Source: an uncultured Actinomycetota bacterium
GTDB lineage: Bacteria; Actinomycetota; Actinomycetes; Propionibacteriales; Nocardioidaceae
Length of the DNA: 64,000 nucleotides
NCBI GenBank assembly: GCA_963811945.1
Contig: CAWETD010000001.1
Location: forward strand, 1,500,428-1,564,427
Direction: 5' to 3'
A model generated the notes under the pieces. It saw only the letters and a list, made by a program, of their open reading frames with translations, searched no databases and had not been told where the DNA came from. Shown here one piece after another: positions 1 to 34,358 of the stretch. A program made the position numbers and the translations under genes. How positions within the stretch are numbered: position 1 is the stretch's first letter; each line of letters starts with the position of its first letter.

Positions 1-3000
1 CAGCGCCATGTCCACGATCCGCGCGTTGGGCAGTCCTTCGTTGAAGGGCACCCAGGACGTGCCCGCGTCGCCGGAGCGGAAGACGCCGGCCTCGGTGGCC
101 GCGTACACGACGTCCGGCGCGTCCGGGTCGACCTCGAGGCCGTTCACCCCGACGAACCGGCCGGCACCGTCGCGCAGCCCGGCCTCCCGCGGCAGCCACG
201 TGACCCCACCGTCGGCGCTGCGCCACAGCGTGCCGCCCGCCCGGTCCCGTGCGCCGGTGTCGCGGTGCCCGAGGTAGACGATGCGCGGGTCCTCCGGGTG
301 CACGGCGACCGCGCCCACCCGGCGCCCCGACCGTGTCAGTGCTCGGAGCTGGTCCGGGGGCGGGGCCGCCCAGGTGGCGCCGCTGTCCCGGGACGCGAAC
401 ACCGCGCCCGAGGTGCTCCCGACCCAGAGCGTGTCGGGGTCGCTCGGCGCGGGGTGCAGGTCGACCGCCTGGCCTCGACGGAACAGCAGGTCGGTGACGT
501 CCGAGCGGACCCGGCGCACGCCGGCGCCGTAGCGCGCCCGGAGCCGGGCGGCGATCACCCGGCGGAGCTCCTCCACCGTGACCGTCGCCAGGTCCGGCAC
601 GTCGGCCGGGGTGTTGACGCGGACGACGATCGCCGCCCCGACACCGTCGTCGATGCGCAGCACGAGGGCCGTCGCTCCGGGTGGGCGCAGGTCGAAGGTC
701 TCGCCGTTGGGCGGGAACAGGTGCCGTTCCCGGCGGCGCCCTGTGCCCGCCGCTGCCCCGAGCCGCGGGAGCATGGTGCCCGCCAGGGTCATTCCGGCCC
801 CGGCCACCAGGAACGTGAGCTTGACCTGGCGGGTCCGGGACAGCTCGGTCACCTCGACGGCGGCCGGGTCGAGGACCGCCCGCAGCGCCGTGGCCAGCTC
901 GCCGGCCGTCGGTTCGGACGGGTCCGCGCACGTCGTCGCGTCCAGCCGCGCGTTGACCGCCGGGTCGGCGCCGACGGCGACGCCGACGGTGCGGTCCCCG
1001 GCCGGGCTGGGGTTGGTGCTGGCGCGGGTGTACGGCACCAGCGTCACGCTGGCGGGAAGGTCGGCCTCACCCGCGTACGTCCGGGCGCTGGCGCCCAGCG
1101 CCGCCACCGGCGAGCCGCCGGTCGTCAGCACGGTGAAGGCATTTCCGGACAGGGTCAGCCGGGTGGCAGCGCCGACGGCGCGGGTGGCGATGCGCACCGC
1201 GCCGGCGGGGCGCTCGAAGCACAGCCGCGCGTCCAGGTGCGGCGCCTGCGTCGCACGCAGGTAGGCCGCGAGCTGGGCGGGTGTGGTGCGCGCCAGGTCG
1301 GGGATGGTCGGGTGCGCCGCGATCGGCACCCGCCGAACCGTCCCGTCGAGCACCAGCACGAGCTCGTCGCCGCCGACGAGCGCGAACGGGCCGGGCTGCG
1401 CGCACACCACGCGCGCCGTCGCGCGTTCCTGCGGCTCGTCGTCGAAGGCCGCGCGCCGGGTGACGACGGTGTCGGTGGCCAGCTGGGGCGCAAGCCCGAG
1501 CACCCCTGCCGCACGGCTCGGCCGCACCTCGAGCGTCGCGCGCACGCCGATCGGCCGCACGTGCAGGATCTCCAACCGGTCCCCCACGTCCAGCGGCACC
1601 CACGTCTCCCCGGACGTGTCGGTGCCGTACAGCCGGCCCTCGCGGGTGTGGTAGGCGCGGCCCTTGTCCCTCGGGTGGTGGGCGGTGTCCGCCACGAAGG
1701 CGGCCGGATCGGTGCGCAGGAACCCGGTCGTGAGGGCGCGGGAGGCCAGCGGCACCGGTCGGTGCGCCTGGGCGGTGAGCACGTCGTCGACCATGCCGGG
1801 GAAGGACAGGCGGCTCACGTCGTTCTGCGAGGTGACGAGCATGCCGTACGCGTCGTCCGGCGCGAAGGCGACGAAGCCACCGTCACCGCCGCCGATCGAC
1901 GCCCACGACCGGCCGCCCGTCGTCACCCAGCAGCCGTTGTCCTGCAGCCCCACGGCCAGCGTGCCCGGGACGAACGGGTGCTGCGACATCGAGTACATCA
2001 TCGTCGCGTCGATGCCGTGCCCGCGCTTGCGCCAGGCGGCCGCCGTGTCCGGCACCTCGTCGTCGTCGGTGATCGCGATCCGGGTGACGCCGGCGATCAC
2101 GTCGTCGAGGTCCGCCAGTGGTCGCCACTCCTTGTCCGCGGGCGTCTGCGGCGCCACCGGGTGCCAGTCCAGCGACCGGCTGATGCCACCGTCGTTGGCC
2201 ACCCACAGCGCACCGCGCGGGTTGCCCGGGTCGTCCCGGAACAGTGCCGCGTGCTGGTCGGCATGATGAGCGCGGTCACGCTGGTTGTGGTCCCAGGCCA
2301 TGATCCGGATGAAGCCTGCCGCCACCGTCGGCGGTGCACCGGCGGCTGCCCGGTCGGCGTCGTAGGACAGGTGCAGCTCGGTCAGCCCGGTGAGCACCGT
2401 TCCCGGCTCGTGCGGGTGCACCGCGATGCACAGGTTGTACGACGCCTGGCCCGCCGTCGGCCAGTGCGGGTGGTCGCGCACCCGGTCCCAGCGGGTGCCG
2501 GCGGGCTCCGGCAGCGCCCGGGTGGCGAGCAGCGTGCGGAACAGCCCGAGGTGTCGCTCGCCGTCGGCGCGGGTCACCCGAAGGTAGGCGACCTCCGGGT
2601 GGTCGGCGCAGATCGCCAGCTTGGCCCGCGCGGGCCGGTCGCCGGCCGCGACGTCGGCGCCCGCGGGCGGCTGCACCTGCATGCGGTTGCCGGCCGCCGC
2701 CAGCCCGGCGTTGACGTCGGCGACCGAGGCCCGGGGAGGCAGCTCGAGGCGGATGATGCGGATCGAGCCGCGGGCGTTGCGATCGTCCGGCACCAGGTAG
2801 AGCAGCCGGTCGCCGGCGCCGCCCGCTGCCGGTGAGTAGACGACGTCGGTGAACCGCTGTCCGGCCAGGTGCTGGGACCATGCGCCACCGCCGTCGACGG
2901 TGCGGAACACACCGGTGGCGCCGACCGCCCAGCAGACCTCGCCGTCGTCGGGGTGCACGGCCAGCGCCTCGAACCGCAGCCCCAGGTTCGGCGCGACCCC

Positions 3001-3687
3001 GGGCGGGGTGGGCGCCCCGGCGACGTCCCAGGTGTCGCCGCCGTCCCTGCTGACGTGGATGCCGTCGCCCACGTACAGCCGCTCCTCGCTCTCCGGCTCG
3101 CCGGTGGCGGCGTAGACGATGCTGGCCGCGCCGACCCGTCCGACCGCGAGCGCGCCGATGGCGAGGCTGCGCTGGTCGTGCCAGAGCGACTCCCAGGTCT
3201 CACCGCGGTTGCGCGTCCGGTAGACGCCGCCAGCGGCAGCCCCGGCGTAGAGCGTGTCCGCGTCGACCGGGTCGCCGACCAGGGCCCGCACCCGGCCACC
3301 GACGTTGCGAGGTCCGGTGGGGACCCAGTTGTGCCGGGCCCAGATCGGCTCCGCGCCCGTGGTGGCGACCGGCCGGGCAGCCCGGCTGCCCGCGGCCACC
3401 GGTGGGGTGCCGCGGGGCACGGCGACCACGGGCGGCAGCTGCGTCGGGGGGTCGGCCTGCACGTCGTCGGGACCGGTCTCGTCGACGGGCGTGGGGGGCA
3501 GCGGCGACGGCGGGTCCTCGGGCGCCTCGTCACCCGGCTCCGGCTCGGCCGGCTCCGCCGCCTGCCCGCGCACGGCGGGCACCGACGGCCGGTCCAGGAA
3601 CCACTCGGCCTTGCTGGCCAGGTCGGCGTCGATGCGCCCGCCGATGACCGAACGGGTGGTCACGACCTCGGGGATCGGGTCGGTCAT
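1..3687 (-). CDS. BNR/Asp-box repeat beta-propeller protein (sortilin/GH74-like). The first 1229 codons are in the window and the 3' end runs off the left edge. It is the last visible gene of the tail operon.
   Basis: Absent from the ORF track because there is no stop in the window. My own minus-strand translation from ATG 3687 (ATGA overlap with the upstream stop) gives [13 protein letters not shown]... It contains Asp-box-like motifs YRTRNRGETW, HVSRDGGDTW, FRTVDGGGAW and FRSGDAGTSW, plus GLQDNGCW. The same frame is found at 3687, about 3240, about 2040 and 147. Confidence 0.8.
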   Translation of the reverse strand, partial: MTDPIPEVVTTRSVIGGRIDADLASKAEWFLDRPSVPAVRGQAAEPAEPEPGDEAPEDPPSPLPPTPVDETGPDDVQADPPTQLPPVVAVPRGTPPVAAGSRAARPVATTGAEPIWARHNWVPTGPRNVGGRVRALVGDPVDADTLYAGAAAGGVYRTRNRGETWESLWHDQRSLAIGALAVGRVGAASIVYAATGEPESEERLYVGDGIHVSRDGGDTWDVAGAPTPPGVAPNLGLRFEALAVHPDDGEVCWAVGATGVFRTVDGGGAWSQHLAGQRFTDVVYSPAAGGAGDRLLYLVPDDRNARGSIRIIRLELPPRASVADVNAGLAAAGNRMQVQPPAGADVAAGDRPARAKLAICADHPEVAYLRVTRADGERHLGLFRTLLATRALPEPAGTRWDRVRDHPHWPTAGQASYNLCIAVHPHEPGTVLTGLTELHLSYDADRAAAGAPPTVAAGFIRIMAWDHNQRDRAHHADQHAALFRDDPGNPRGALWVANDGGISRSLDWHPVAPQTPADKEWRPLADLDDVIAGVTRIAITDDDEVPDTAAAWRKRGHGIDATMMYSMSQHPFVPGTLAVGLQDNGCWVTTGGRSWASIGGGDGGFVAFAPDDAYGMLVTSQNDVSRLSFPGMVDDVLTAQAHRPVPLASRALTTGFLRTDPAAFVADTAHHPRDKGRAYHTREGRLYGTDTSGETWVPLDVGDRLEILHVRPIGVRATLEVRPSRAAGVLGLAPQLATDTVVTRRAAFDDEPQERATARVVCAQPGPFALVGGDELVLVLDGTVRRVPIAAHPTIPDLARTTPAQLAAYLRATQAPHLDARLCFERPAGAVRIATRAVGAATRLTLSGNAFTVLTTGGSPVAALGASARTYAGEADLPASVTLVPYTRASTNPSPAGDRTVGVAVGADPAVNARLDATTCADPSEPTAGELATALRAVLDPAAVEVTELSRTRQVKLTFLVAGAGMTLAGTMLPRLGAAAGTGRRRERHLFPPNGETFDLRPPGATALVLRIDDGVGAAIVVRVNTPADVPDLATVTVEELRRVIAARLRARYGAGVRRVRSDVTDLLFRRGQAVDLHPAPSDPDTLWVGSTSGAVFASRDSGATWAAPPPDQLRALTRSGRRVGAVAVHPEDPRIVYLGHRDTGARDRAGGTLWRSADGGVTWLPREAGLRDGAGRFVGVNGLEVDPDAPDVVYAATEAGVFRSGDAGTSWVPFNEGLPNARIVDMAL

Positions 3688-6227
3688 GGCACCAGGTCCA
3701 GCAGGAAGCGCACGGCGTCGGACAGCTCCCGGTTGGTGGGGGCGGCCGCACCGGCGCCCCCAGGGGGCAGCGGGGTGTACGGCATGCTCGTCGGGGCGTT
3801 GGTGTCCGCGGTGAGGTCGGCCGCCATCCGGCTCCACGCCCGGAAGGCGCCGACCCACCCGAGGCTGTCGGCAACCCTGGCCCCTCCCGGGGCGGGGCTC
3901 GCGTACCCCACCGGTGTCGGGATCATCGTGGGGTCGCGGTCGGCTGGCGCACCGCCCTTCTCGCTCGCGGCGCCCCCACCGACCAGCATCTGCCACTCCC
4001 CCAGGCGCCGGGTGTCGAGGTTCCACTGCCGGAACACCTGGTGCACGCGGCGCAGCGCCGGGTCGGGAGGCAGTGGCTGACCCGGCACCGGCGCGACCGC
4101 CAGCGGCGCGTCCGACAGGTGGCTTGCCGCACCCATGCACAGCAGGGCGGCGAGGTCCGAGGCCAGGCCGACGCCCGTGTCGTCGAGCTCGCCGAGCGCC
4201 ACCTCGGGCACCAGGGGGAAGCCCGCCAGCGTGGACGCGGCCGGTCCGCCTACTCCTACCGTCGTCGTCCAGCCCACCCGGGGCGCGTGCCGGAGCAGCG
4301 CTGCCCCCTCGGAGTCGTGCCCGAGCGGGATCACGTCGGCGGCGTGCGCGTCGTGCTCGGCGTTGGTCGGCCGCAGGTCACCAGGGTCGGCGAAGGTCGC
4401 CGGCCACGGCAGCCGGTACGCCGGGTCGGTGGCGCCCGTCGACTCCACGTGCAGCCCGGCGACGCCCGCTCCGGCGAGCAGGGTCACCACCTCGGCGACC
4501 GTCGAGCCGGCGGGGGGCAGCCGCACATCGACCGTGCTGCCGTCCCCGCGGGTGAAGGTCACGGTGTCGCCGTGCCCGGCCACCGCGAGTGCGACGCCGT
4601 CGTCCGACCACAGCCGGACCAGGGGCCGGGCGCCCGACGGGTAGCGGGCGTCGGCGAGGGTCGGCGCGGCCACCGCCGGGTCGTTCCAGAGGGTGGCCTC
4701 GTCGAAGACGCGGGCCAGTGCGGTGAGGCCGCCGACACCCGTACCCAGGCTGTCGGCCGGTGGCAGTGCGTCGGTGAACAGCCGGTCGATGGTGAACGAG
4801 TGCTGCAACCGCAGCGCCAGCACCACGGCCCCGATCAGCGACCCCACGGTGAGCAGGACGATCACGATCCACCAGACGGCGTCCTCGTCGATCAGCTTGA
4901 GCAGAGTGTCCAGCACGAGGTCCAGCAGGGCGGTCGCGAACGGCAGCAGCTGGAGCAGCATCACGAAGCCGTCGCCGCGGCGCCCGTCGCGGTAGGCCAG
5001 CCCCGCCTTGATCCCGGCGAAGGCGTCGGTGCCGAACTGCCCGAGCAGGAGCAGCCAGCGCAACAACGGGTGGTCGTCGTCCTCGGCGCGCAGCAGCGTG
5101 GTGACGGTCAGGCCCATCCGCGCCAGGAACAGGACCAGCGCGGTCACGAACAGCCCGGTGTGCTCGGGCACCTGGGACCACAGGTACATCGACCAGGCGA
5201 ACGGGGCGATCGACGCGACCCCGGCGGTGACCGAGAGCAGCTCCGACACCGAGCGCTCGGTGATGCTCGCACCGGAGGTGGTGAAGGCACCCGACGAGGG
5301 GAGCAGCCGGGCCACCAGCAGTCCGCCGGCGGGCGCGAGCGCCGCGGGGGACAGGACCAGCGCCCAGATCGGCCAGCTCCAGTCGGCCACGGCGGCTCCC
5401 GCAGCGACGGTCTCCTGGGCCGCGCGCAGTCGCTCCTCGGTGAGCTCGCCCTCCTCGCCCAGGCTCGCCTCGAACGCGGCGAACCCGTGCGGCCGGTTCG
5501 CGTCCGGACCGAACACCTGGGTGTACGCGGCCGCGTAGCCGGCGAGCAGGGCGGGTGGCACCTCGGCGGCCGTGGGTGCCCACGACCCCCACCGCGCGTC
5601 GCCACCCGGCCCGAGCAGCAGCCGCAGCAGGTGCGTACGCGCCAACCCGACCTCGACCGACGGGTCGCCCGGGCCGGGCTCGCGCCGGGTGCGGCGGGCC
5701 TGCAGGTCGCGGCGCAGCGGTCCGGTCACCACCTCGCCGGCTGCCGTGCTGAGCATCCCCAGGGTGTAGGCCCGGATCCGCGCCCGCTGGTCCGGGTCGG
5801 CGGTGCGGCTGAGCCCCTGCTGTCCGACGGCGAGGGCGAACTGCATGGCCCGGGTGACCACCGGCGACAGGTCCGGGTCGGGGCCGCCGGTGCGCAGCAG
5901 CGTGCTGCGCCACGCGGGCCCGGAACGGCCTTGCGCGAGCCCGGCCAGGTCGAACCCCGTGGTGCCGAGCACGGCGAAGCGCCCCAACGACGGGCGCAGC
6001 GCCGGCCCGGGCCGCAGGGTGACCGGGACCCCGCCACGGAGCATGTCGCGAGCGGCGGTCGCGAGCGCCAGCACCCGTCGCTCCGTCGCCCGCACCGTGA
6101 CCGTGCCGCCGCCGGCGTCGCTGGAGAACGACCGGGCGCGGACCTTGCGCTCGAGCTGGTCGACGAGGTCGGAGAGGCGCTCGTGGGTGAGCAGCAGGAC
6201 GGGCGGACCGAGCAGTGGTGGCGTCAC
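3684..6227 (-). CDS. Polytopic membrane protein of unknown function (847 aa) inside the tail operon
   Basis: Long ORF with normal actinobacterial composition. ATGA overlaps on both sides. A central block of hydrophobic helices (e.g. [70 protein letters not shown]) is flanked by soluble N- and C-terminal regions of about 300 aa each. Confidence 0.75.
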
Positions 6228-9200
6228 GGCAGCGCCTCCTGCAGCTCGGACAGGGCGTCGCCGGTACGTACCAGGCCGTCGTCGAGCTGCGCCGCGATGC
6301 TGTCGAGGGCGGCCAGCACCGGTTCCAGCACCCGTCCGACATCGACCGCGGCGACGGCGGCGACCACCTCGTCGTACGCGAGCAGGGCGGGGCGGGCCAC
6401 GACGGTCGGGCGGAACTGCTCGGCGACCCGGGCCACGGCGTCGCGCATCGTCACGAGAACCGGCTCGACGCTGGTCAGCGGGTCGAGAGTGCGCACCGTC
6501 TCCACCAGCGCGTCGAGCTGGGCGATGGTGGGCTCCAGCAGGGTCGCCGGCCGCAGCTCCACCACCGTGGACCGGATGTCGGCCCAGACCGGCTCGATCT
6601 CGTCCACCACGAACGAGACGTCCAGCGCGTCGAGAACACCGGCGACGTCGTCCAGGGCGACCTGCAACGGCGCGAGCAGGCCCTCGCGGACGGCACGCAC
6701 GACCTGGTCGCGAAGGCCGGCGACGACGGGGATGAGCGGGGCGAGCACGCGCTCCGGCGGCGACGCGGCCAGCAGGTCCGCCACCGCGTCGCGCAGGTCC
6801 GTGCCGACCTCCACGCCCAGGCCCGCCAACAGGTCACGCAGCCGCTGCGGCACCACCGTGAGCGGTCGAAGCGCGTCGCGCAGCCCACGGGACACGGCGG
6901 CGAGCTCGCTGCGGCCGTCCGCGGTCATCCCGGCGACCAGGTCGGCGACCTGTCGCAGCAGCGTCAGGTAGCGCTCGCGGCCCGCGACCAGGGTGCCCAG
7001 GGTCTCCCGCGGGTCAGCACCCGCCAGCTCCTCGAGCACCCGTCCGCGCAGCACGCTGTCCTCCGGCAGGTCCGCGGCAGCGGCGGTCACCGCGTCGTAC
7101 GCCGTGGTGAGCGCGACCGTCAACGGCACCGGGTCGAGCCCGTCCACGACCTCGACCGCACGACCCAGCGCACCGGCCGCCTCCGCGATCCGGTCATGGA
7201 CGTCGGCCGCCGCGTCCACCGCTCCCCCCACCCAGCCGCGAACGGTGTCGAACGCCTCCGGACGGACCACGAGCGGCGTGGACTGCAGCAGCCCGCTGAC
7301 CAGCACGCCGACCCCGCTCGGGCGGTTGGGCTCCGGGCTGCGCACCGTGGCCACCAGGTCGTCCCACAGGCCGGCGAGCAGCGCGGCGAGCGGGGTGAGG
7401 TCGACCCGCGCGGCCAGCGAGTCGATGACGCCGTCGGCCGCGTCGAGACGTTCCTGCCAGGTGTCGAGGGCGAGTGTCTCGCGCACGGAGCCGACGGTCT
7501 CCGACACCTCGCCGAGCACGGGCTGCAGCAGCACCGACGGCTGCAGTGCGTCGACGACGTCGAGCACGGAGTCGAACGCCGCGTCGACGGGAGCGAGGAG
7601 CTCGCGCAGGTCGACGGTGCCGAGTGCGGCAGCGGCCTCGGCGAGCAGGTCGTGCACCGGCGCCAACGCTTCGGCCGGGTCAAGCGCGCGCACCTGTGCG
7701 AGGAACGGGTCGAAGACCTCCGCCTCGAACGTGACCAGGGCCCCCTCCGGATCGTGCTCCTCGAGGAACGCGACCACCTCCTGCTGGGCCAGCCGTACGC
7801 CCTCGAGCACCGCGACGTCGACTCCGGCACGGATCTCGTCCAGCTGGGCCAGCAGCGGCACCACCACCTCGGCGTCGAAGTCGATCGCCTTGACCGGGGC
7901 GGTCGCCTCGCTCAGGTCGGCTCGCACGTCGTCGGGCAGCAGGTCGACCGGGACCGCGGCGACGACGTCGGCCGTCGTCTCCATCACGTCGACGGCGGTG
8001 TCGAAGTACGGCGAGAGCTCGGCCGACTGCAGCGCCGCCACGACCGGGTCGAGCGCGGCCTGGATCTCGGCGCCCAGCTCGGCGAGGTGCAGGCCGGCCA
8101 CGAACCCGCGGACCCGCTCGAACGCGGCGGCGACGTCACCGGCGGCGTCACCGATGTGTGCCTCCACGTCGGCCATCTGCGCGGTGATCGTCTCGGCGAC
8201 GGTGCGTACCGCCGCCTCCGCAGCGCCCACGACCTCCTCGACGGAGCGGATCGCCGCCTCGACCGGGTCCAGCACCAGCCGGATCGCGTCGACGACCGCC
8301 GTGGCGTCGAGCGCCGACGCCGCCTCCAGCACGGTGTCCAGCGCCGCCCGCACGACGGCCACGACCTCCCTCGCGCGCGTCTCGATCTCCCCCAGCGCGC
8401 CGAGCCCGGCGCGGACCTGTGCCGTCACCGGCTCGAACAGTGCCGCCGGGTCGAGGTCGTCGACAGCGTCCGCCAGCCGGCCCGCGACCGCGGCGACCTC
8501 GTCCCACAGCAGGTCGGGGCTGGGCGCGCGGACCGGCACCTCGAAGGCCAGCACCGGGGCCAGCCAGCCGGACAGCGTGCGCGCGAGGTCGGCGACCGCC
8601 GGCACGTCGTCCTCGACCACCTGCTCGGTGGCTGCCCGCAGCCGCGCGTCGAGCGTGGGTACGTCGACGGCGACCAGCGCCGCCTCCCCGAACCCGAGGC
8701 CCGTACGCAGCAGGTCGACCGTCGCCTCGATGGTGCCCCGGACCTCGCGCGCCATGGTCGCGATCCGGTCGGCCTCGACGGCGTCATGAGGGTCGGCGGC
8801 ACCGATGGCGGCGACCACGACCGAGCCGTTGGCCAGGGCTGCGACCCGGGCCCGCGCGGCGTCGACCCGGTCCTGGTCGAGCAGCCGCTCGACGCCGGAC
8901 CCGAGCACGGACAGCTCGCGCACCGCGCTCTCCGCCGCCATCAGGGCACCGACCAGGCGGACCAGCGCGGCCAGGCCGGGGGCCGGGCCGCGCACCAGGT
9001 CGAGCACGTTCTGCAGCGACAGCCCCGGGACCAGGCCGGTCAGGGCGTCCACGCTCGAGGCCACCTCGGGCTCGGCGAGGACGGCCTGCAGCCGCCCGAA
9101 CGCAGCAGTCAGGGACCCGAGCCCGGTCGCGGGCGGGCCGGCGGCTCCCGTCGTCGCCATCCGGTCGAGCAGGCCGCGCGAGCCGGGGTCGAGCAGCAGC

Positions 9201-9493
9201 CGCACCGGCACCAGCAGGTCTGCCAGCGGACCGAGCAGCTCGCCGGTTGCCGGCAGCCGGGCGAGCGTGCCGGCGGAGTCCTGCGTGGCTCGGGACACCG
9301 CGCCCAGCAGGCCGGTCGTGTCCAGCTCGCCGAGACCGTCGAGACCGGCGGTGACCTCGCCGAGGTCGAGCGCCGTGCCCGGCAGCTCGATGTCTGTGAC
9401 CTCGGTGCCCACGTCGGCGACCACCGAGGCGAGGTCGAACCCGTCCTCTCCCAGCAGGGTGCCGAGCCGCTCGCCCAGCGGCGTCGCTGTCAT
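6224..9493 (-). CDS. Large Ala/Leu/Val/Asp-rich, predicted alpha-helical degenerate-repeat protein (1089 aa), function unknown
   Basis: Start reassigned to ATG 9493 ([11 protein letters not shown]...), which forms an ATGA overlap with the stop of the upstream gene. The 86-aa Arg-rich N-terminal extension in the ORF track looks spurious. Recurrent L-x-P-V/L...LD...V motifs occur ([46 protein letters not shown]). Confidence 0.75.
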
Positions 9494-10818
9494 CCGGCAC
9501 GCACCTCCAGCCACAGCCGGAGGATGCCGCCCGGCCTGGCGGGCGGCTCGTCGACGTCGGGGAGCAGGAAGGCGGCGCTGCCGGACACCGGGCGGCCGTC
9601 GGTTCCGACCAGCAGGTCGGCGCACACCTCCACCCAGATGACGCCACCGGTCTCCGCCACCAGGCTGCCCAGCAGCTTGCGGTCGTCGGTTCGGATCGTC
9701 CAGTTCAGCGTCGGACCGGGTTCGGGCACGACCTGCCCGTGCAGCGCGCACACCGGGGCCAGCGTCCCCTCGGGGGCGCAGCTGACCCGGACCAGCCCGG
9801 TGAGCACCGGTCGGGCCCGGTCCAGGGCCAGCTCGCCGTCGAAGTCGATCGCCAGCCGGCTGAGCTGGGCCAGCGCGTCGGCGAGGACCAGCGGCTCCCT
9901 CGGCTCCCAGCTCAGCCGTCGCGCCCGGATCAGGTCCAGCCGCCCGCCCTCACCGGGAGGTCCCTGCACCCCCTGCGGTCCCCGCTCCCCGCGCGGCCCG
10001 GCCTCGCCCGGCGGGCCCGGCTCGCCCTGCGTCCCCGATGCACCCGGTGCACCCGGTGCACCTTGCGTGCCCGGCTCACCGTTGGCGCCGGCGGCGCCCG
10101 TCTCTCCCCGCGGACCCGGCTCGCCCTGCGGCCCCGATGGCCCCGGCTCGCCGGGGTCGCCCGGCTCGCCGGCGGGTCCTGGCGGACCGGTCTCGCCGAC
10201 AGTCCCCGGCTCACCCGGAGGCCCGGCCGGACCGGCCGGACCCGCGGGTCCCTCCGGCCCCGGATCGGTCGCGCTCGCGACCAGCGGGCCGTCGTAGCGC
10301 CAGGTGCCGGCCGCGTCCTGGAAGTGCTCGCCGGTGTGACCGTGCTCGGCCGGCGTCAGGTAGTGCACCCCGTCGTAGCCGGGGCTCACGCCGCCGTCGT
10401 CCCGGGTCAGGACGGCGACGGTGAGGGTGTCGGCGTCGTCGGGTGGGTCCCCGGGCAGCACCTCCACCGCCGTGTCGAGGTAGACGATCGTCGGCTGGTC
10501 CCCCATCCGGGCGGCGGGGTCGTCGTGGTTGGTCGCGCGCAGCACGACGCTGAACGGCCCGGCACCGTCCGGCACGGTGAGCGCTGCGCCCTCCTCGACC
10601 CGCAGCGGGCGGCCGCCCGAGGTCACCGCGAGGCCGGGCGACAACGAGACCGTGGCGTCGGCCCCCACCTCGATCCGCAGCCCGTACGCGACCGCACCAG
10701 TGCCGGCCGTCCGCCGCAGGTCGTCCGCGGCCTGCTCGGCCGTGGCCTGCGGGTGCTCCAGGTGTGCGGCCGTGACCAGGAGACCGTCCAGGAACCGGGT
10801 GCGCTGCGGGTCGCTCAT
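9490..10818 (-). CDS. Collagen triple-helix-repeat protein, tail-fibre-like (442 aa)
   Basis: 35 uninterrupted G-X-Y triplets (residues 187-291, [19 protein letters not shown]...GPPGEG) sit between globular N- and C-terminal domains. It lies distal to the baseplate genes and has ATGA overlaps at both ends. Confidence 0.85.
9946..10260 (-). repeat. In-frame collagen-like (GXY)x35 coding repeat
   Basis: Direct count of Gly at every third residue over 105 residues of the 442-aa ORF. Confidence 0.9.
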
Positions 10819-12428
10819 GCGCCGGCCTCCTCATAGACGAGCCGCACGGTCTGCACGCCGTACGTAGCGGGCGCCGCGACCCGAAGGGTCAGCGTCAGCG
10901 ACGCCCCGGCTACGGGCGTGACCGGGGTCGCCGGGCTGAGGGTGACCGGGGTTCCGGGGACGACGTCGGCGGCGGCGTCCGCACCGAGCAGCAGCCGCGC
11001 CGGAGGCACCGGCGCCTGCTCGGGAGGCGTCCCCACGAGCCGTACCGAACCCAGCGGCGGTGGCGCTGCGCGCGCGTGCGACAGCGCCACCACGACACCG
11101 GTGGGGTCGAGCCGGAAGACGGACGCGTCGTCGGCAGCGGAGGCACCGGGTGCCGCCACCGCGAGGTCGACGGTGCCGCGGGCGACCTGCAGCGACAGCC
11201 ACAGCACGTCGTCGTCGGTCGGGGTCGGTACCGGCTTCGCCAGCGCGAGGGTCACCCACTCCGGCGGGCCGGGCGGCGCCAGCCGCTGGGGCGCGGGCAG
11301 GATCAGCGGCGCGAGCACCCCGCCGTCGAGGGGAGCGCCCGGGGCCAGGGACGGGTCGCCGGTGAGCAGGACACCGGCCAGCTCGGCACCGTCCGCGCCG
11401 GCCAGCACGGGGACCCGGACACCGCAGAGCACGCCGAGACGGCGCAGTGGCGCGGCGGCGAGCCGGACCAGGAGCGGGTTGCCGGGTGCCAGGGTGAGGG
11501 CGTACGTGTCCGACCGCGGCGGTCCCACCTCCGGCAGCACCCGCTCGTCCGGCGGGTCGGCGTCGATGCCCGCGATCACGTGGTGCACCCGCCAGCTGCC
11601 GGCGGCCGCGGGCAGGGTCAGCGTGACGTCGTGGTCGCCCTCCTCGTCGGCCACCACCGACGGCGGGACGACACCGAGGTCGACGTCGTGGGTGAGCAGC
11701 AGCGGCGCCTCCACCCGCACCGAGATGACCGCCGGCTGGTCCACCTGGAGGCCGACCGGCACCACCCGGTCGGCGGCACCGATGGCGGCGCGCAGGAACG
11801 TGGTGATGTCGACGTCCGCGCCGGCCTCTGCCGAGCCCTTGGCGAGGATCAGCGCCGGGTCGGCGCGCCAGACGGTCGCACCGTCGACGGTCAGACTCAT
11901 CCCGGTCGGCACGGCAGGCAGCGACGCGAACCCCTCGTTCTGCACCGTGGCCGGACTGGCCGCCCGGTCCAGGTTGACCAGCAGCTTGGTGGTCATCACC
12001 TCGCCCGCGAACGCCGCCTGCCCGCCGCTGATGCTGACTCCGGTCAGGGCGGCGAAGGCCGCGCCGGTCCACGTCAGCACGGACGAGACGCCGACCGGCA
12101 GGTCGAGCCCGGACAGGGTGGCGAAGCCGCCGAAGTCCAGGACCAGGCTGTTGGCGGACGCGGCCGGGTCGTCCCCGGTCGAGCGGACCTGGGCGATGCC
12201 GGACAGCGGGGTGCGGCCCGGCGCCCGGGCCGACACCGTCGCCGTCGCCGCGTCGACCAGCGCCTGCGCGGGCAGCGTCACCGACACCTCGGCCGTGCGC
12301 CCGCTGGGCTCCGCCGGCGACGTGTCGGCGGTCCGGGCGCTGCGGTACAGCCCCCTGTCCACCTCGAACGTGGCACCGGAGATCTCGACCGTGAAGAAGT
12401 CGGCGTCGGCAACCCTGGTCGCGACCAT
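10815..12428 (-). CDS. Hypothetical protein (537 aa), probably beta-rich, in the distal tail module
   Basis: Long ORF with typical composition. ATGA overlap downstream and a 3-nt gap upstream. I recognised no motif. Confidence 0.7.
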
Positions 12429-12431
12429 GAC

Positions 12432-13019
12432 TCAGGCGTTGAACGTCTGGGCGGCCTGCAGCGCGAGGAAAGCGTTGCGCACCCCCGCGCCGGTCGCGGT
12501 CTCGTCGATGTCGATGTGCTGTTCGGTGAACGCGGCCTGGATCACCGACTGGTCCGCCTGGCTGAGAGTCTCCGGGCTGATGTTGCGTGCCAGCACCGCC
12601 CGCACGTCGTCGCGGTCCCGGACGAAGTCGCGGAACACCGTCTCCAGGGGTATCTCGCGCAGCGCCACGTGTGCGTCGGGGACGATCCGCGTCGGCAGGT
12701 CCAGCGGCGATGCCAGCACCACCTCGATCGTCGTGCCCTGGGGGATGCGGGTCCCCGCCGGCACGCTCTGCGCCACCACCCGCGGCTGCAGCAGCGGGAT
12801 GATCGGCACGACCTGGTCGATGACCGAGAAGTCGATAGGCACCACCGGCACCGCGACGCCGTCGCGGGCGATGTTGGCCTGCTTCTCGGCCTCGCCCAGG
12901 TTGACGAAGATCGTGGTCGGGCCGGTTGCCCGCGGCATGTTGAACGCGGTGACGGCGTCCTCGGACAGCGAGATCCGCCTCGGGACCGCCTCCCGGCCGA
13001 TCTCCTCACGACCTGCCAT
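12432..13019 (-). CDS. Hypothetical protein (195 aa) with a PASTA-like segment
   Basis: The ORF is tightly packed in the operon. The segment VVPIIPLLQPRVVAQSVPAGTRIPQGTTIEVVLA resembles the C-terminal half of a PASTA domain. Confidence 0.6.
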   Translation of the reverse strand: MAGREEIGREAVPRRISLSEDAVTAFNMPRATGPTTIFVNLGEAEKQANIARDGVAVPVVPIDFSVIDQVVPIIPLLQPRVVAQSVPAGTRIPQGTTIEVVLASPLDLPTRIVPDAHVALREIPLETVFRDFVRDRDDVRAVLARNISPETLSQADQSVIQAAFTEQHIDIDETATGAGVRNAFLALQAAQTFNA

Positions 13020-13034
13020 GACGTCCTCCTGCTC

Positions 13035-13769
13035 TCACGCGCTGCCGCGCTGTCGGGTGGTCGTCCGTCCGACCACGAGCTCCAGGCGGTTGAGCACGCT
13101 CACGACCTCGTCGTACGTGAGCCCGACCAGGCTGGGCATCGTGACCGTCGCCTCGGACTGGAGCGCTGCCGCCAGCACCAGGCGCACCTCGTCGACGGCC
13201 GGGTCGGCGGCGGAGCCGGCCGCCGGCGTCTGCACGAGCACGGGAGAGTTCTGGTTCGCGCTGGGCATGTTGGTCCGGGCGATCTCCTGCCCGGTGATGT
13301 CGAGGATCTGGTCGACCTGCAGCCCCGCGGCGGTGAGCCGGTTGACGGCCTCCTCGGCACCCACACCGAACAGGTCAGGCACCAGCACCCGGTTGCGCGT
13401 CATCTGCACGAGGACCGGGCCGCTGACCGGCACCGTGACGTCTCGCGCCTCGTTGCCGAACCCGGCCGCCTCCACGTGCACCCGCCAGGGCCCCGGCGTG
13501 ACGCCGGCGACGACGAAGTCGGCCGACCCGGCGAACGGCGCGATGCCCTCGACCGGCCGCCCGACGTCGCTCAGCGGCATGGCGACCACCCGGGCACCGG
13601 GAATGGCACTGCCGTCGGCGCCGCTGACCGACACCGCGACGACCGCGCCGCCGAGCTCGGCGACGACGTCGTACAGGTTGTCGAGCCCGGCGAGGATGGC
13701 GTTCCACGCCTGCGCGGTCAGCGGGCGACCCGGCTGCGCCTGGGTGAGCGCTGGCTTCTCGAGCGGCAT
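13035..13769 (-). CDS. CarboxypepD_reg-like Ig domain plus PASTA-domain protein (244 aa), a candidate receptor-binding protein
   Basis: VAVSVSGADGSAIPGARVV...VTPGPWRVHVEAAGF resembles a carboxypeptidase-regulatory fold. VPDLFGVGAEEAVNRLTAAGLQV...VLVQTPAAGS...VRLVLA and MPSLVGLTYDEVVSVLNRLELVVG match the PASTA pattern. It lies immediately downstream of the baseplate genes. Confidence 0.65.
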   Translation of the reverse strand: MPLEKPALTQAQPGRPLTAQAWNAILAGLDNLYDVVAELGGAVVAVSVSGADGSAIPGARVVAMPLSDVGRPVEGIAPFAGSADFVVAGVTPGPWRVHVEAAGFGNEARDVTVPVSGPVLVQMTRNRVLVPDLFGVGAEEAVNRLTAAGLQVDQILDITGQEIARTNMPSANQNSPVLVQTPAAGSAADPAVDEVRLVLAAALQSEATVTMPSLVGLTYDEVVSVLNRLELVVGRTTTRQRGSA

Positions 13770-13784
13770 CGCTACTCCTCGTGC

Positions 13785-15386
13785 CTACGGGATGGGGGTG
13801 GGGTCGGGCTGGGCGACGGCCGGCCACAGTCGGGTACCGAGCACCAGGCCGCCGACGGGCTCGGTCGAGCCGGGCTCGCGCACGACGCCCTCGCCGAGCG
13901 TCCACCGGTCGTCGGCGTGCTCGACGTAGACGTGCACTCCGCCCGCGCGGTGCCGGTCGAGCAGCCGTCGGAGCCGGTCGCGGAGCACCGGTTGGGCCGG
14001 CGCGGCACCCTCGGCAGCGTCGAGCCCCAGCAGCCGCTGCGGCAGCCAGAGGCGCACGGCGTACGGCTCGCGCTCCTGCCAGTCGAAGCCGACCTCGGCA
14101 GCGGCGGGCAGCGGCGCGCCCGCCTCGTCGGCGAACACCGAGGCCCGGCCCGCCGGGTCCGCGCCGTCTCCTCCGGCGAACGCCGACCTGTCGGCAGGGA
14201 TGGCGAAGCCGCTCGGTGCGGACCCGAACGCCGCCTCGCCCACGAACAGCACCCAGGTCGACTCACCGACCCGCATCGGCAGCGCCTCCACCAGCCCACC
14301 GGCGTGCGGGAACACCGCGCCGGGGTCGAAGGCGTCGGTCAGCGGACGGGTCACGACGAAGGTCGCCACCCGGTCGGCCGGCGCCGGTTGGTCGTCGTCG
14401 GTGCTGCCGAACACGAAGTCGCCGCGGCGCGGGTCCTCGCTGGCGAACACGCCGCCGGAGAAGGAGTAGCCGCGGCGGGTGACGTTGGCGCCGGCCAGCG
14501 TGATCCGGCCGTCGCTCTCGAAGCGCAGCTCCTGCCCGTCCGGGACCGTGCCGGTGTAGGCAACGCCCTTGCCCGCCCCCGTGTTGACCACCTGCGGCGC
14601 CACGGTGCGGTCCTCGATCCCGCGCACGCGGACCGACACCTGCACCTCGTCGAACCCGCCGCGCAGCTGGCGGAAGACCTCGCCCGGACGACGTGGCACC
14701 GGGTCGACCACCTGCAGCCGGAACGGGTTCTCCTCCAGCGCCAGCAGGTCCTCGTCGGGCTCGACCGTCGCGGAGCCGGCGTCGCCGTCCCGGGTCAGGC
14801 GGAGCAGGTCCAGGCACCGCGCCACGTGCCAGGAGCGGTCGTCGAGATGCGTGATCTCCACGACCTCCAGGGCGAGGAAGGCGGCCGCCGCGCGGAGCAG
14901 CGCCGACACCGTGCCGTTGCCGTCGCGGTGCACCCGGACCAACCGGGTCATGCAGCCGCGCACGGTGGCCAGCACCGCGGCGTACGCCACCAGCCGGTGC
15001 AGTGCCCCGGCCAGCTGAGCGGGATCGTCGAACGCCGACGCCTGGACGCCGAACAGCTCCGGCAGCGTCGCGAGGGCGGCGTCGACGGCCTCGGCCGGCG
15101 CTGCCGGGTCGTCGAGCAGCACGGCGAGGTCGGCGGCGCGGGCCAGCCTGCCCCGAACCAGCTCGAAGGTCTCCGGCCCGAGCCCGTGCAGACCGGCGAG
15201 CAGCAGCAGGTCGGCCTCCTCGTCCAGGCTGTCCAGCCGGTGCGACGCCCGGATCCGGCCCACCTGGGAGGTCTGCACGTCCAGGGCCGTCACCAGCCCG
15301 CCGACCGTCTCGTCCAGGACGGTGCCCGGCCGGTCCGCCCGCAGGTGCGCGGGGAAGCGGGAGAGCACCGTCGCGGTCCTGGTCAT
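13785..15386 (-). CDS. Baseplate wedge protein, gpI/Afp12-like (533 aa)
   Basis: Start reassigned to ATG 15386 (MTRTATVLSRF...), an ATGA overlap with the Baseplate_J gene. Its position directly after the J-like gene matches P2/Mu/eCIS order. No diagnostic motif beyond position and size. Confidence 0.6.
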   Translation of the reverse strand: MTRTATVLSRFPAHLRADRPGTVLDETVGGLVTALDVQTSQVGRIRASHRLDSLDEEADLLLLAGLHGLGPETFELVRGRLARAADLAVLLDDPAAPAEAVDAALATLPELFGVQASAFDDPAQLAGALHRLVAYAAVLATVRGCMTRLVRVHRDGNGTVSALLRAAAAFLALEVVEITHLDDRSWHVARCLDLLRLTRDGDAGSATVEPDEDLLALEENPFRLQVVDPVPRRPGEVFRQLRGGFDEVQVSVRVRGIEDRTVAPQVVNTGAGKGVAYTGTVPDGQELRFESDGRITLAGANVTRRGYSFSGGVFASEDPRRGDFVFGSTDDDQPAPADRVATFVVTRPLTDAFDPGAVFPHAGGLVEALPMRVGESTWVLFVGEAAFGSAPSGFAIPADRSAFAGGDGADPAGRASVFADEAGAPLPAAAEVGFDWQEREPYAVRLWLPQRLLGLDAAEGAAPAQPVLRDRLRRLLDRHRAGGVHVYVEHADDRWTLGEGVVREPGSTEPVGGLVLGTRLWPAVAQPDPTPIP

Positions 15387-17670: not shown

Positions 17671-18002
17671 GGCGCGGTCCCGTCGCTGATGAACGGCGCG
17701 GACGGCGGCCCGAGCACGGTGAGGATGCCCGGCCCCGACGGAATCTGGTCGCCCACGCGCACCAGCGGCTGGCCGGCCACGGTGACCCCCGTCGACGCGC
17801 CCGGTGTCCCGATCGGCAGCGGGTACGGAACGCCGGACACCGAGTTGACCATCTGGCACAACGAGCCGGCGGTCGCCAACGGCATGCCACCGGCGACCGC
17901 CACCGACTGCAGCACCGCCACGACGACACCACTGTCCGGCGGGCCGGCGGCTCCGGGTGAGAGGAGCACGGAGCAGCCGATGCTGACCGGTGGCCCGGAC
18001 AC
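17667..18002 (-). CDS. PAAR-like (or DUF4280-like) spike-tip protein (111 aa)
   Basis: GTG 18002 is preceded by GGGAGGGGAC. It is a small Gly/Pro/Val-rich beta protein (VSIGCSVLL...VAGGMPLATAGSLCQMVN...VTVAGQPLVRVGDQIP) placed directly after the spike gene. Confidence 0.65.
   Translation of the reverse strand: MSGPPVSIGCSVLLSPGAAGPPDSGVVVAVLQSVAVAGGMPLATAGSLCQMVNSVSGVPYPLPIGTPGASTGVTVAGQPLVRVGDQIPSGPGILTVLGPPSAPFISDGTAP

Positions 18003-32780: not shown

Positions 32781-34358
<1,578 letters not shown>

Follow-up and report, generated by a model that had tools for sequence, protein, structure and literature searches.

A predicted six-helix membrane protein in a conserved cassette of an actinobacterial contractile-tail cluster

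On the available data MEM, an 847-residue protein encoded in the window (the whole stretch of 64,000 nucleotides of actinobacterial DNA that was analysed), belongs to a phage-tail-like cluster as a true membrane protein specific to that system, and its family occurs almost exclusively next to this tail lineage. Because the family almost always stands beside one widespread type of headless-tail cluster, MEM is probably the membrane component of that machine itself and not a lysis protein. The best explanation, to which we give a little less than an even chance, is that MEM serves as the membrane-embedded part of an adaptor that, on the cytoplasmic face, couples the tail-like particle to the membrane of its producer. 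The first-pass annotation had proposed either a membrane anchor or firing trigger, or a large holin-like factor. The former proposal stands in so far as MEM is a system-specific predicted membrane protein, but the holin alternative does not. The conserved three-gene cassette around MEM, its degenerate phospholipase C-like N-domain, and the departure of the cluster from the Afp/PVC-type extracellular contractile injection systems (eCIS) had no place in that reading.

The MEM gene and the tail operon

The MEM gene is real and not a stray insertion. The 847-residue ORF described earlier is found on the minus strand, beginning with GTG at 6227-6225, seven nucleotides downstream of a GGAGG ribosome site, and ending with TGA at 3686-3684. 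Its codon-position GC (GC3 0.91-1.0, GC2 0.36-0.6) has the pattern expected of a genuine gene in a genome of 75% GC, a homologue (P0002) is 73% identical, and the gene recurs in the same cassette across dozens of genomes, which is more than chance would produce. ATGA overlaps had been reported with both neighbours. This is correct for the MEM stop and the start of the downstream gene, but the MEM start, being GTG, overlaps the stop of the upstream gene as GTGA. The gene, its domains, and its partners are as follows.

3684..6227, minus strand: MEM gene, 847-residue predicted membrane protein (ORF list, frame-specific GC, translation, both junctions, homologue P0002)
5379..6227, minus strand: N-terminal all-helical domain of MEM, residues 1-283 (PF00882 matches in relatives, alignment, AlphaFold2)
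4794..5378, minus strand: central hydrophobic bundle of MEM with six predicted transmembrane helices, residues 284-478 (hydropathy, family profile, AlphaFold2)
3687..4793, minus strand: C-terminal alpha/beta domain of MEM, residues 479-847 (invariant columns, AlphaFold2)
6224..9493, minus strand: upstream coiled-coil partner, all-helical, tape-measure-like, 1089 residues (sequence, 31-homologue alignment, profile matches)
1..3687, minus strand: downstream giant BNR/Sortilin-type beta-propeller partner, running off the window (Pfam Sortilin-Vps10, NCBIfam F510_1955 glycosylhydrolase-like)
9490..25620, minus strand: remaining headless contractile-tail operon (Pfam, PHROGs, and NCBIfam scans; frame plot)

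As had been claimed, the gene lies inside a tail operon. This operon is long and co-directional, encodes sheath, tube, a gpD-like hub, a gpV-like spike, a gp25-like wedge, and Baseplate_J, and belongs to a headless cluster. Its gene order, which recurs in independent loci, is given here from the first transcribed gene onwards.

24745-25620, minus strand: Amidase_2, first in transcription order
23997-24671, minus strand: unk224
23170-24000, minus strand: unk276
21764-23173, minus strand: sheath
21260-21760, minus strand: tube
20707-21258, minus strand: unk183
19649-20815, minus strand: P/A/G-rich ORF
18684-19652, minus strand: gpD-like hub
18013-18687, minus strand: gpV-like spike
~17670-18010, minus strand: small ORF in PAAR-like slot (PAAR identified in relative L043)
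~17185-17650, minus strand: gp25-like wedge (gp25 identified in relative L043)
~15383-17200, minus strand: Baseplate_J
13785-~15390, minus strand: gpI-position protein
13035-13769 and 12432-13019, minus strand: two PASTA proteins
10815-12428, minus strand: unk537
9490-10818, minus strand: collagen-like fibre, last before the cassette

Because Pfam and PHROGs scans found no AAA ATPase in the cluster, and because no solved sheath in the PDB matches its sheath in sequence, the cluster is, judged by sequence, not a classical Afp/PVC-type eCIS. The amidase at the operon head is the sole lysin-like gene and is 18.5 kb away from MEM. Neither 57 related loci nor five more reached via the sheath contain a homologue of it. 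A canonical holin was not seen in the cluster in the Pfam and PHROGs scans, and Pfam, PHROGs, and NCBIfam detected no DUF4157 or chaperone-like partner. A weak CIS13-like signal is present in the cluster, located in the collagen-like protein and not in MEM.

The cassette and its linkage to one tail lineage

MEM is the middle gene of a cassette that moves as a unit, in which a coiled-coil gene of about 1090 codons precedes it and the giant BNR beta-propeller gene follows. Of 47 testable loci, 45 have the coiled-coil gene upstream of MEM. In the window this gene probably starts with the ATG at 9493, in an ATGA overlap with the stop codon of the collagen-like gene. All profile matches of its product are coiled-coil proteins, among them a phage tape measure chain (E=4.6e-4), and 23 of its 31 homologues match Baculo_PEP_C. 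The BNR gene, whose relatives encode 1250-1960 residues, lies directly 3' of MEM in 35 of 49 loci, and in eight loci, as well as in P0009, P0028, and P0037, the BNR protein is fused to the N-terminus of MEM. The BNR partners of Gram-positive and Gram-negative hosts have acidic N-termini and no signal peptides. Both the fusions and the missing signal peptides argue for a physical association of BNR protein and MEM on the cytoplasmic side. In the window and other actinobacteria the cassette is placed at the 3' end of the operon; other phyla have it at the 5' end, ahead of the sheath. In one locus (L056) it is divergently transcribed.

An exhaustive search yielded 245 representatives of the MEM family, and none of the libraries searched (Pfam, NCBIfam, PHROGs) provides a name for the window protein. 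Homologues of the tail genes of this window accompany MEM in 48 of 57 loci from at least six phyla, the other nine being short contigs or lacking the upstream flank. In addition, a locus reached independently via the sheath (L061) also carries the cassette; in the sheath-reached loci of window-type gene order the flanks are too short to cover it. Members of the family were not found in IMG/VR or in 50,697 phage genomes. The divergence of MEM follows that of the sheath (r=0.76), for which the value between tube and sheath (r=0.86) serves as comparison, and its pairwise identities track those of the coiled-coil partner (r=0.93). MEM co-occurs and co-diverges with the structural genes across genomes, as a core component would. 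Linkage, co-divergence, and absence from phages fit the idea of a membrane anchor or trigger.

Domain architecture of MEM

Soluble regions of roughly 300 residues around a hydrophobic centre had been described, and such regions are present with about 283 residues at the N-terminus and about 370 at the C-terminus. The protein is also predicted to be polytopic as claimed, but with six helices, according to family hydropathy and AlphaFold2, instead of seven to nine.

In the AlphaFold2 model residues 1-283 consist of helices only. The zinc-dependent phospholipase C model PF00882 is matched by 10 of 43 family members, with matches covering ~2/28-128 of the 167 profile positions; of ten relatives tested, five (27.9-31.2 bits) exceed the curated Pfam cut-off of 26.8 bits. 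One relative has been named by NCBI as a zinc-dependent phospholipase C. The window protein has no Pfam match at E<=0.01. Because homologous relatives match the model, the N-domain is related by descent to PF00882, while the window protein taken alone is not recognisable as a member. Intact relatives contain the zinc-ligand motifs GHLCHxAxDVxSHP and HKGxPD. The conserved His and Asp residues are missing from the window protein, which in the alignment has MTEG in place of HHDH and LRTGGPD in place of HKGxPD. The ligands have been lost in every actinobacterial relative with a readable motif and also in L012, L018, and L021, whereas HHDH is intact in most non-actinobacterial members, namely in most of those from Gemmatimonadota, Burkholderiales, Alphaproteobacteria, and Myxococcota. 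The N-domain of the window protein is, as far as its motifs tell, catalytically dead. That the gene has been kept after the loss of the ligands points to a structural core role. Among the 50 matches listed by the Foldseek search with the MEM model, all with E>=0.058, there was no structure of a phospholipase C or P1 nuclease.

The central region is modelled with confidence (pLDDT 90.4 and pTM 0.90 for the whole protein) as helices 285-308, 324-352, 354-382, 387-413, 417-446, and 449-477, each 24-30 residues long and connected by loops of 2-12 residues. Hydropathy averaged over the family has six peaks, and this pattern is kept across phyla although the central region is the least conserved sequence of the family. 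Three segments contain no charged residue over 23-25 positions while the rest of the window protein is charge-rich. Reading of the sequences and the consensus shows an aspartate in helix 4 (D401) that is conserved in most family members. HMMER profile matches of the central region to the PDB are weak and comprise polytopic transporters and channels only. On a stricter hydrophobicity scale, good scores in the window protein are confined to helix 6 (-3.0) and helix 3 (+1.0), its other four helices being marginal, and in two family members every helix is at +2 or above. The even number of helices places the N- and C-domains on the same side, the N-domain contains no signal peptide in its 283 residues, and the K+R counts (6.7 versus 4.1) lean to an N-in/C-in orientation. 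From this we infer that MEM inserts into the membrane with both termini in the cytoplasm.

Conservation within the family is strongest in the C-domain. It contains the motif VFRxWNLDxRRxNEW at residues 731-745, and V731, R733, W735, L737, R740, E744, W745, and G790 are invariant. The domain is modelled with pLDDT mostly above 90, and Foldseek searches against the PDB and BFVD gave no structural match at E<0.04.

A proposed membrane adaptor and its alternatives

As an adaptor subunit, MEM would be an integral protein of the cytoplasmic membrane, in which the bundle of six transmembrane helices bears two large domains facing the cytoplasm. Translational coupling would provide the three cassette products in a fixed ratio, and the coiled-coil, MEM, and BNR proteins would assemble on the inner face of the producer's membrane with MEM as the embedded subunit. 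We infer that such a complex forms and has a tethering role, by which it would tether, position, or gate the tail-like particle at the membrane. The marginal scores of four of the six helices on the stricter scale count against the adaptor, and so do the BNR-type beta-propellers, as such domains are usually extracellular binding modules. In addition, the peptidoglycan-binding PASTA proteins, the collagen-like fibre, and the amidase of the window would suit a released, extracellular tailocin no less than an anchored machine, and those non-actinobacterial members that keep HHDH may act enzymatically on lipids and not as a passive anchor. A precedent for the adaptor is that CIS can depend on dedicated membrane proteins, namely CisA (PMC12237407) and Cis13 (PMC8894136). 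A bolder proposal, which we regard as rather unlikely, is that the cassette is the membrane complex of an unrecognised cell-attached class of contractile injection machines, apart from the T6SS and the Afp/PVC-type eCIS, whose ancestral phospholipase domain would open the producer's membrane locally at firing. If this were true, the class would be common to Actinomycetota, Acidobacteriota, Gemmatimonadota, Myxococcota, and Proteobacteria, and the actinobacteria would keep a catalytically dead, purely structural phospholipase domain.

The phospholipase C ancestry of the N-domain, documented by the relatives above the Pfam cut-off and the NCBI-named relative, could instead mean that MEM is a release or breaching factor, which damages or remodels the producer's membrane when triggered so that particles exit or fire through the envelope. 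In the lineages with intact HHDH this would happen by phospholipase C-type hydrolysis, and MEM would then do the work of a holin or lipid-directed lysis enzyme without belonging to either family. That the scans showed no canonical holin, and that an amidase stands at the operon head in the window, agree with such a role. However, the gene is still conserved where the ligands have been lost, the amidase is not conserved alongside MEM, and it is the C-domain and not the enzyme domain that has changed least. A protein of 847 residues with three domains and a tight pairing with two giant proteins is also unlike any lysis factor, and a role in release is therefore unlikely. The large holin acting with the upstream amidase, as originally suggested, was rejected on the size and architecture of MEM and on the distant, non-conserved amidase.

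The tape-measure-like composition of the coiled-coil partner, together with its weak tape measure and Baculo_PEP_C matches, would be compatible with a delivered cargo or translocon. The coiled-coil protein and MEM would then travel on or inside the particle and enter the membrane of the target cell at firing, in the manner of tape-measure-related CIS effectors with membrane hairpins or of T6SS effectors that contain transmembrane domains. Streptomyces CIS do have tape-measure-related effectors that carry a transmembrane hairpin (PMC13277306), and Het-C domains of the PLC superfamily have been predicted as PVC-type toxins (PMC3482391). On the stricter scale the very hydrophobic helix 6 among milder ones loosely resembles the insertion domains of pore-forming toxins, and the 3' end of the operon, where the window has its cassette, is the usual site of eCIS cargo genes. 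However, cargo genes vary among loci, while MEM is near-universal in its lineage and co-diverges with the sheath, and other phyla have the cassette at the 5' end. The compact three-domain model (pTM 0.90) would fit poorly into a tube lumen, the scans revealed neither a DUF4157 nor a chaperone-like partner, and a toxin would not be expected to stay so conserved after losing its catalytic residues. We consider delivery decidedly unlikely.

The frequent adjacency and fusion of BNR protein and MEM, in a fibre-like context of collagen-like and PASTA proteins and in a cluster whose features fit an extracellular particle, could also reflect a membrane-bound assembly platform. MEM would nucleate or chaperone the BNR proteins, as candidate receptor-binding fibres, and the coiled-coil proteins before a free tailocin is released; folding and attachment would occur at the membrane, and MEM would remain outside the finished machine. 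However, a fibre covalently fused to a six-helix membrane domain could not leave with a soluble particle, and we know of no tail-fibre assembly factor that is a polytopic membrane protein, so that we give this explanation little credence. Least probable of all, and in our view very improbable, is that MEM is a large soluble helical protein with the six helices as its buried core: the marginal scores on the stricter scale and the compact fold, in which the bundle is packed between two domains, would allow it, but the charge-free stretches, the six hydropathy peaks kept despite poor sequence conservation, the lengths of helices and loops, and HMMER matches to polytopic membrane proteins only speak against it.

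Comparison with known systems

For the adaptor role of MEM the best functional analogy would be CisA (SCO4242), a bitopic protein of 468 residues that is required for firing of the cytoplasmic CIS of Streptomyces coelicolor (PMC12237407). Its N-region is disordered, its C-domain is periplasmic and solute-binding-like, and it belongs to type IId eCIS loci with cis1-16 (PMC12237407). Like CisA, MEM is an actinobacterial membrane protein that is specific to a CIS lineage, lies in a contractile-tail-like cluster 3' of the baseplate genes, and has a cytoplasmic N-terminal region of about 285 residues ahead of the membrane segment. However, MEM has 847 residues, six predicted helices instead of a bitopic topology, an N-domain that is folded and PLC-like, and both soluble domains predicted on one side of the membrane. 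Among the matches listed by Foldseek for the MEM model there was no solute-binding protein that would indicate an extracytoplasmic C-domain of the CisA type. The position 3' of baseplate and fibre genes holds in the window, but other phyla put the cassette before the sheath, and the lack of a detected AAA ATPase and of a sheath matching solved sheaths in sequence does not agree with a type IId eCIS cluster. Judged by its described architecture, with one helix, 468 residues, and a periplasmic solute-binding-like domain, CisA was rejected as a relative of MEM.

Cis13 and TssJLM, each embedded in a membrane and dedicated to attaching a contractile machine to it, would be counterparts of MEM as an adaptor subunit. 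The T6SS is anchored by the TssJLM complex, whose TssL and TssM subunits have one and three helices, respectively, and both possess periplasmic domains. Apart from BNR-type repeats, MEM and its partners have no match to Pfam or NCBIfam models, those of the T6SS included, that would identify a TssL, TssM, or TssJ. Cis13, a tail-fibre-like trimer with one C-terminal helix, is the membrane anchor of the thylakoid-anchored CIS (tCIS) (PMC8894136); owing to this single helix it was rejected as a relative of MEM. Unlike MEM, none of Cis13, TssL, TssM, and TssJ has a PLC-like domain or six helices.

Sle1 and Sle2 are tape-measure-related CIS effectors of Streptomyces lividans (PMC13277306). Sle1 is a single protein in which an N-terminal coiled coil is followed by a globular end that bears a two-helix hairpin; a DUF4157 protein is its partner, and its gene lies upstream in reverse direction (PMC13277306). 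The cassette shares with it a coiled-coil, tape-measure-like protein and hydrophobic helices accompanying an actinobacterial CIS. However, coiled coil and membrane domain are separate large proteins in the cassette, as the AlphaFold2 model of MEM has no coiled-coil region and the 1089-residue partner provides it, DUF4157 is missing, and the genes belong to a conserved core and not to variable cargo.

Holins have roughly 60-150 residues and one to four helices and are encoded adjacent to the endolysin. MEM resembles holins and the lysis cassettes of R-type tailocins in being a membrane protein of a tail cluster that, in the window, has a peptidoglycan amidase. However, it is far larger, with six helices and two folded domains (~283 and ~370 residues), and the PHROGs scan gave no PHROG match to MEM. 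The MEM family has an N-domain homologous to the zinc-dependent phospholipases C of the phospholipase C / P1 nuclease superfamily, with His/Asp motifs recognisable in the alignment, but no secreted PLC toxin that carries a six-helix bundle is known to us.

The MEM gene and its operon

The membrane protein MEM is the product of a real, translationally coupled gene, consists of three parts including a phospholipase C (PLC)-like domain that is dead as judged from its sequence, and is absent from the phage collections searched. The window has a GC content of about 75%, and a frame plot along the MEM ORF gives, in its own frame and strand, a third-position GC of 0.91-1.0 and a second-position GC of 0.36-0.6. 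The start codon is a GTG with a GGAGG 7 nt 5' of it, and it is well placed because the aligned relatives conserve the N-terminus from about residue 2. The start shares GTGA with the stop of the upstream gene, and the MEM stop shares ATGA with the ATG of the downstream gene. The first-pass annotation described the locus essentially correctly but has to be amended in three points. It gave an ATGA overlap on both sides, while the junction sequence upstream is GTGA. It counted roughly seven to nine helices, for which family-averaged hydropathy and AlphaFold2 give six, and it associated MEM with an upstream amidase that is, by its coordinates, 18.5 kb distant and not adjacent.

From 25620 to the window edge, all genes point the same way, and the gaps between them are small or absent. 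The following features belong to this operon, those listed without coordinates having been assigned by Pfam, PHROGs, and NCBIfam scans:

3684-6227, minus strand: MEM gene, 847 codons, from the ORF list
6224-9493 (longest ORF to 9751), minus strand: upstream coiled-coil gene, ATG at 9493, [11 protein letters not shown]
12432-13769, minus strand: two PASTA-domain proteins, among the baseplate and fibre genes
21764-23173, minus strand: tail sheath, phrog_279 over the full length, E=3e-42
Same operon, minus strand: tail tube
Same operon, minus strand: gpD-like hub and gpV-like spike
Same operon, minus strand: gp25-like wedge and Baseplate_J
Same operon, minus strand: collagen-like fibre protein

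The same scans found no head genes in the tail operon, and an ABC transporter and a two-component system are located beyond its head. Simple promoter and terminator scans over window positions 1-20000 returned nothing, which carries little weight at 75% GC, and the MEM gene was not found in the public sequencing runs searched. Further away, the region 34000-41000 has a lower GC content (0.68-0.70) and contains a DUF222-HNH (13E12-type) gene at 36131-36895; this stretch is possibly mobile or of recent acquisition. Two paralogous GGDEF-EAL proteins with near-identical domain boundaries (41097-43535 and 47939-50605) flank an MshC-like gene of the Cys-tRNA-synthetase family and a Cys/Met PLP enzyme gene.

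Anatomy and topology of MEM

Hydropathy and charge-free stretches place the hydrophobic centre of MEM at residues 284-478, and the average over 43 family members has six hydropathy peaks at about residues 298, 342, 370, 401, 435, and 464. The AlphaFold2 model based on the 43-member alignment (mean pLDDT 90.4, pTM 0.90) contains helices at 285-308, 324-352, 354-382, 387-413, 417-446, and 449-477, which are connected by short loops. Residues 1-283 are modelled as all-helical and residues 500-847 as mixed alpha/beta. A stricter biological hydrophobicity scale, applied with equal weight for all positions, predicts good insertion alone for just two helices of the window protein, helix 6 (-3.0) and helix 3 (+1.0), and some relatives do not have any helix below +2. 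Therefore, membrane insertion of the predicted helices is graded, as a prediction, as very likely. Both large domains should be cytoplasmic, since MEM lacks a signal peptide and its helices are even in number; the Lys+Arg counts (6.7 versus 4.1) lean towards the same N-in/C-in orientation.

Predicted helix 4 starts with a conserved Arg-Trp, followed by D401 (window about 5025-5027) in an xDxY/F motif that most family members share. Such a charge inside the bundle hints at a role beyond anchoring, for example in ion or headgroup binding. In Foldseek searches, no PDB or BFVD entry matched the full model at E<0.04, and as these searches are local, domain-level matches would have shown in the same runs. 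A profile search against the PDB gave just weak, composition-type matches of residues 294-491 to polytopic transporters and Kv channels, and homology to these proteins was thus not accepted.

The MEM family and its phospholipase C ancestry

The window MEM does not match any entry of Pfam, PHROGs, NCBIfam, or PADLOC. A word-indexed homologue search, performed with the single sequence and with the 43-sequence profile alike, retrieved one relative with 73% identity on a 4-kb metagenome contig, and an exhaustive HMMER search retrieved 245 cluster representatives at E<=0.001, 136 of which are found at E<=1e-30. Many members have about 850 residues, others about 950-1200 with an insertion inside the C-domain, and several reach 1850-2850 residues with BNR-repeat propellers fused in front. 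The sole Pfam family matched is Zn_dep_PLPC (PF00882), found in 10 of the 43 family members, and five of ten individually tested relatives (27.9-31.2 bits) exceed its curated cut-off of 26.8 bits. One relative is named "zinc dependent phospholipase C family protein" at NCBI, the other named ones "hypothetical protein".

In the alignment, the members matching PF00882 carry the motifs MPxxLTH, GPD, HKGxPD, and GHLCHxAxDVxSHP, and at these positions the window MEM reads [18 protein letters not shown] and [14 protein letters not shown]. Among the genome loci, the H-H-D-H zinc ligands are intact in most Gemmatimonadota, Burkholderiales, and Rhodospirillales, and also in some Myxococcota and Acidobacteriota. 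Other residues take their place in all actinobacterial members with a readable motif and in three further loci (L012, L018, and L021). To judge from its sequence, MEM has its ancestry in the zinc-dependent phospholipase C family, although it lies outside that family by both sequence match and ligands; with H-H-D-H replaced, the window protein is a catalytically dead descendant. The most conserved stretch of the MEM family is located in the C-domain (VFRxWNLDxRRxNEW, with invariant V731, R733, W735, L737, R740, E744, and W745). IMG/VR and the INPHARED phage genome collection (50,697 genomes) do not contain relatives of the family.

The cassette in other genomes

An earlier genome scan with a two-sequence MEM alignment had not found any loci; with the 43-sequence alignment and one genome per species, 56 MEM loci were obtained. 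The actinobacterial hosts are Gaiellaceae, Ilumatobacteraceae, Acidimicrobiia, Kribbella, Nocardioides, Microlunatus, Marmoricola, and "Streptomyces sp. SID13031". The other hosts belong to the Acidobacteriota, Gemmatimonadota, Burkholderiales and Rhodocyclaceae, Myxococcota (Sorangium cellulosum So0157-2, Hyalangium), and Rhodospirillales (Rhodospira trueperi). When 57 loci were searched with every protein of the window's operon, 48 had at least one homologue of the tail-cluster genes, and sheath, tube, hub, spike, or Baseplate_J were present at 35; the nine loci lacking a tail homologue are short contigs or miss the upstream flank. A homologue of the coiled-coil gene is located within 4.5 kb upstream of MEM in 45 of the 47 loci with enough upstream sequence, and a BNR-propeller gene directly 3' of MEM in 35 of the 49 with enough downstream sequence. 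Eight loci encode a fusion of the BNR protein to the MEM N-terminus.

Two gene orders were found. In one, shared by the window, other actinobacteria, and a single Sorangium locus, Baseplate_J, the gpI-position protein, two PASTA genes, unk537, and the collagen-like gene are followed by coiled-coil, MEM, and BNR genes. In the other phyla, the order is mostly unk224, coiled-coil, MEM, (BNR), unk276, sheath, tube, and unk183, continuing to hub, spike, PAAR, gp25, and Baseplate_J (unk numbers denote unnamed proteins of the window's operon). Because both orders exist and the cassette of locus L056 is divergently transcribed relative to the tail genes, the three genes move as a unit. A Gemmatimonadales chromosome (OY970303.1, about 1-18000; L026) has the MEM/BNR cassette twice in tandem, with MEM copies of 830 and 1045 residues ahead of unk224, sheath, and tube.

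Pairwise identities of MEM correlate with those of the sheath (r=0.76, 23 loci) and of the coiled-coil partner (r=0.93, 36 loci), as do those of tube and sheath (r=0.86, 24 loci), all three values being partly due to shared host phylogeny. Thus, across six or more phyla the cassette is tied to a single tail lineage, and MEM co-diverges with the machine.

In its longest form, the ORF of the coiled-coil gene extends by 86 Arg-rich codons across the collagen-like gene. The true start is most likely at 9493, with an ATG that shares ATGA with the stop of the collagen-like gene; the resulting product has 1089 residues, and most relatives have 1087-1121. This partner is all-helical, acidic, and tape-measure-like. 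All matches to its profile are coiled-coil proteins, one of them a phage tape measure chain (E=4.6e-4), and 23 of 31 homologues matched Baculo_PEP_C. The downstream partner carries Sortilin/BNR-type repeats according to the Pfam and NCBIfam scans, and its N-termini are acidic and without signal peptide in the window as well as in Gram-positive and Gram-negative relatives.

The tail lineage

More than 1,600 relatives of the sheath (clusters at 90% identity) are found at E<=1e-20, the best 120 of which are 58-83% identical. The sheath is unusually conserved, with 58-65% identity across Actinomycetota, Acidobacteriota, Myxococcota, and Proteobacteria. PDB sequences gave no match to it, and the 50,697 phage genomes only partial matches with 25-35% identity. 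Five loci found through the sheath alone (L058-L062) repeat the window's gene order. In L061 the cassette is located between unk224 and unk276; in the other four its expected position is past the retrieved 10-kb flank. Such sampling can reveal the cassette only where it is upstream of the sheath, the window-type order placing it more than 10 kb past the sheath.

Neither an AAA ATPase nor head genes were found in these five loci, and MEM is absent from the phage and virus collections. Thus, the system is a domesticated, headless contractile tail, distinct from Afp/PVC-type eCIS. PASTA proteins, one of which also has a carboxypeptidase-regulatory-like domain in the window, occur as conserved components in clusters of actinobacteria, Sorangium, and others (L058-L062), which suggests that the particle binds peptidoglycan. 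The Amidase_2 gene at the operon head (24745-25620) has no homologue in any related locus, and BTAD/SARP regulators take its position in L058, L059, and L062. Between the chaperone-like unk183 and the gpD-like hub, where a tape-measure gene is usually located, there is a P/A/G/R-rich ORF with weak frame signal (19649-20815), for which tblastn found no homologue across the 57 loci; relatives have an ORF of 330-450 residues in this place. This ORF and the 1089-residue coiled-coil protein are candidates for setting the tail length.

Possible role of MEM

MEM would be inserted in the cytoplasmic membrane of the producer with both large domains inside, and may there form a complex with its two giant partners, which is supported by the translational coupling, the natural fusions, and the correlation with the coiled-coil partner. 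This complex could couple the tail-like particle to the membrane, by analogy with CisA, Cis13, or TssJLM elsewhere. The common role of the family is probably structural because the gene persists where the metal ligands have been lost, and because the conserved core is the C-domain and not the enzyme domain. We favour such an anchor or adaptor role tentatively and give it somewhat less than an even chance, mainly because PASTA proteins, collagen-like fibre, and amidase would suit a released tailocin.

The zinc ligands that are intact in other lineages would fit a release or breaching factor, which damages the membrane and acts enzymatically where the ligands are present. However, the window version seems dead, the amidase is not conserved, and the MEM architecture does not agree, so that this function is unlikely. 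A delivered cargo or translocon is rather improbable as well: the coiled-coil partner is tape-measure-like and tape-measure-related effectors are known (PMC13277306), but MEM is near-universal in the lineage, co-diverges with the sheath, is compact, and has a 5' position in other phyla. It is very unlikely that MEM is a membrane-bound assembly platform for the BNR fibres, and still more so that it is not a membrane protein at all.

Comparison with known systems

The literature searched, with incomplete coverage, did not contain a description of the MEM family or the cassette. The tail lineage marked by MEM has no annotation in the family libraries searched and is common in soil and water bacteria. 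The family merits its own family model, its genes now being called "hypothetical protein" or occasionally "zinc dependent phospholipase C family protein". Because there are cultured carriers (Rhodospira trueperi, Sorangium cellulosum So0157-2, Rubrivivax sp. A210, Kribbella, and Nocardioides jejuensis), localisation and function of MEM are directly testable, and the ligand-intact versus ligand-dead PLC domains offer a natural contrast between an enzymatic and a structural role.

To our knowledge, contact between a CIS and a membrane is known in a few lineages only, namely through TssJLM in T6SS, Cis13 in cyanobacteria, and CisA in Streptomyces. CisA, which couples the CIS to the membrane in Streptomyces (PMC12237407), has one helix and a periplasmic solute-binding-like domain; MEM has neither, and its identification as CisA was rejected because helix number and C-domain differ. 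Cis13, which has this function in cyanobacteria (PMC8894136), is fibre-like with one helix, features that are not found in MEM and on which this assignment was rejected, too. TssL, TssM, and TssJ were dismissed for want of sequence membership, and a holin because holins are small and paired with a lysin, neither of which applies to MEM. Sle1-type effectors are single proteins with a coiled coil, a hairpin, and a DUF4157 partner; MEM does not share these features, and the single-protein build and the DUF4157 partner led us to reject this type. MEM is a membrane protein associated with a CIS but related neither in sequence nor in build to those already known, and a different, much larger, polytopic candidate for CIS-membrane contact, with two giant partners.
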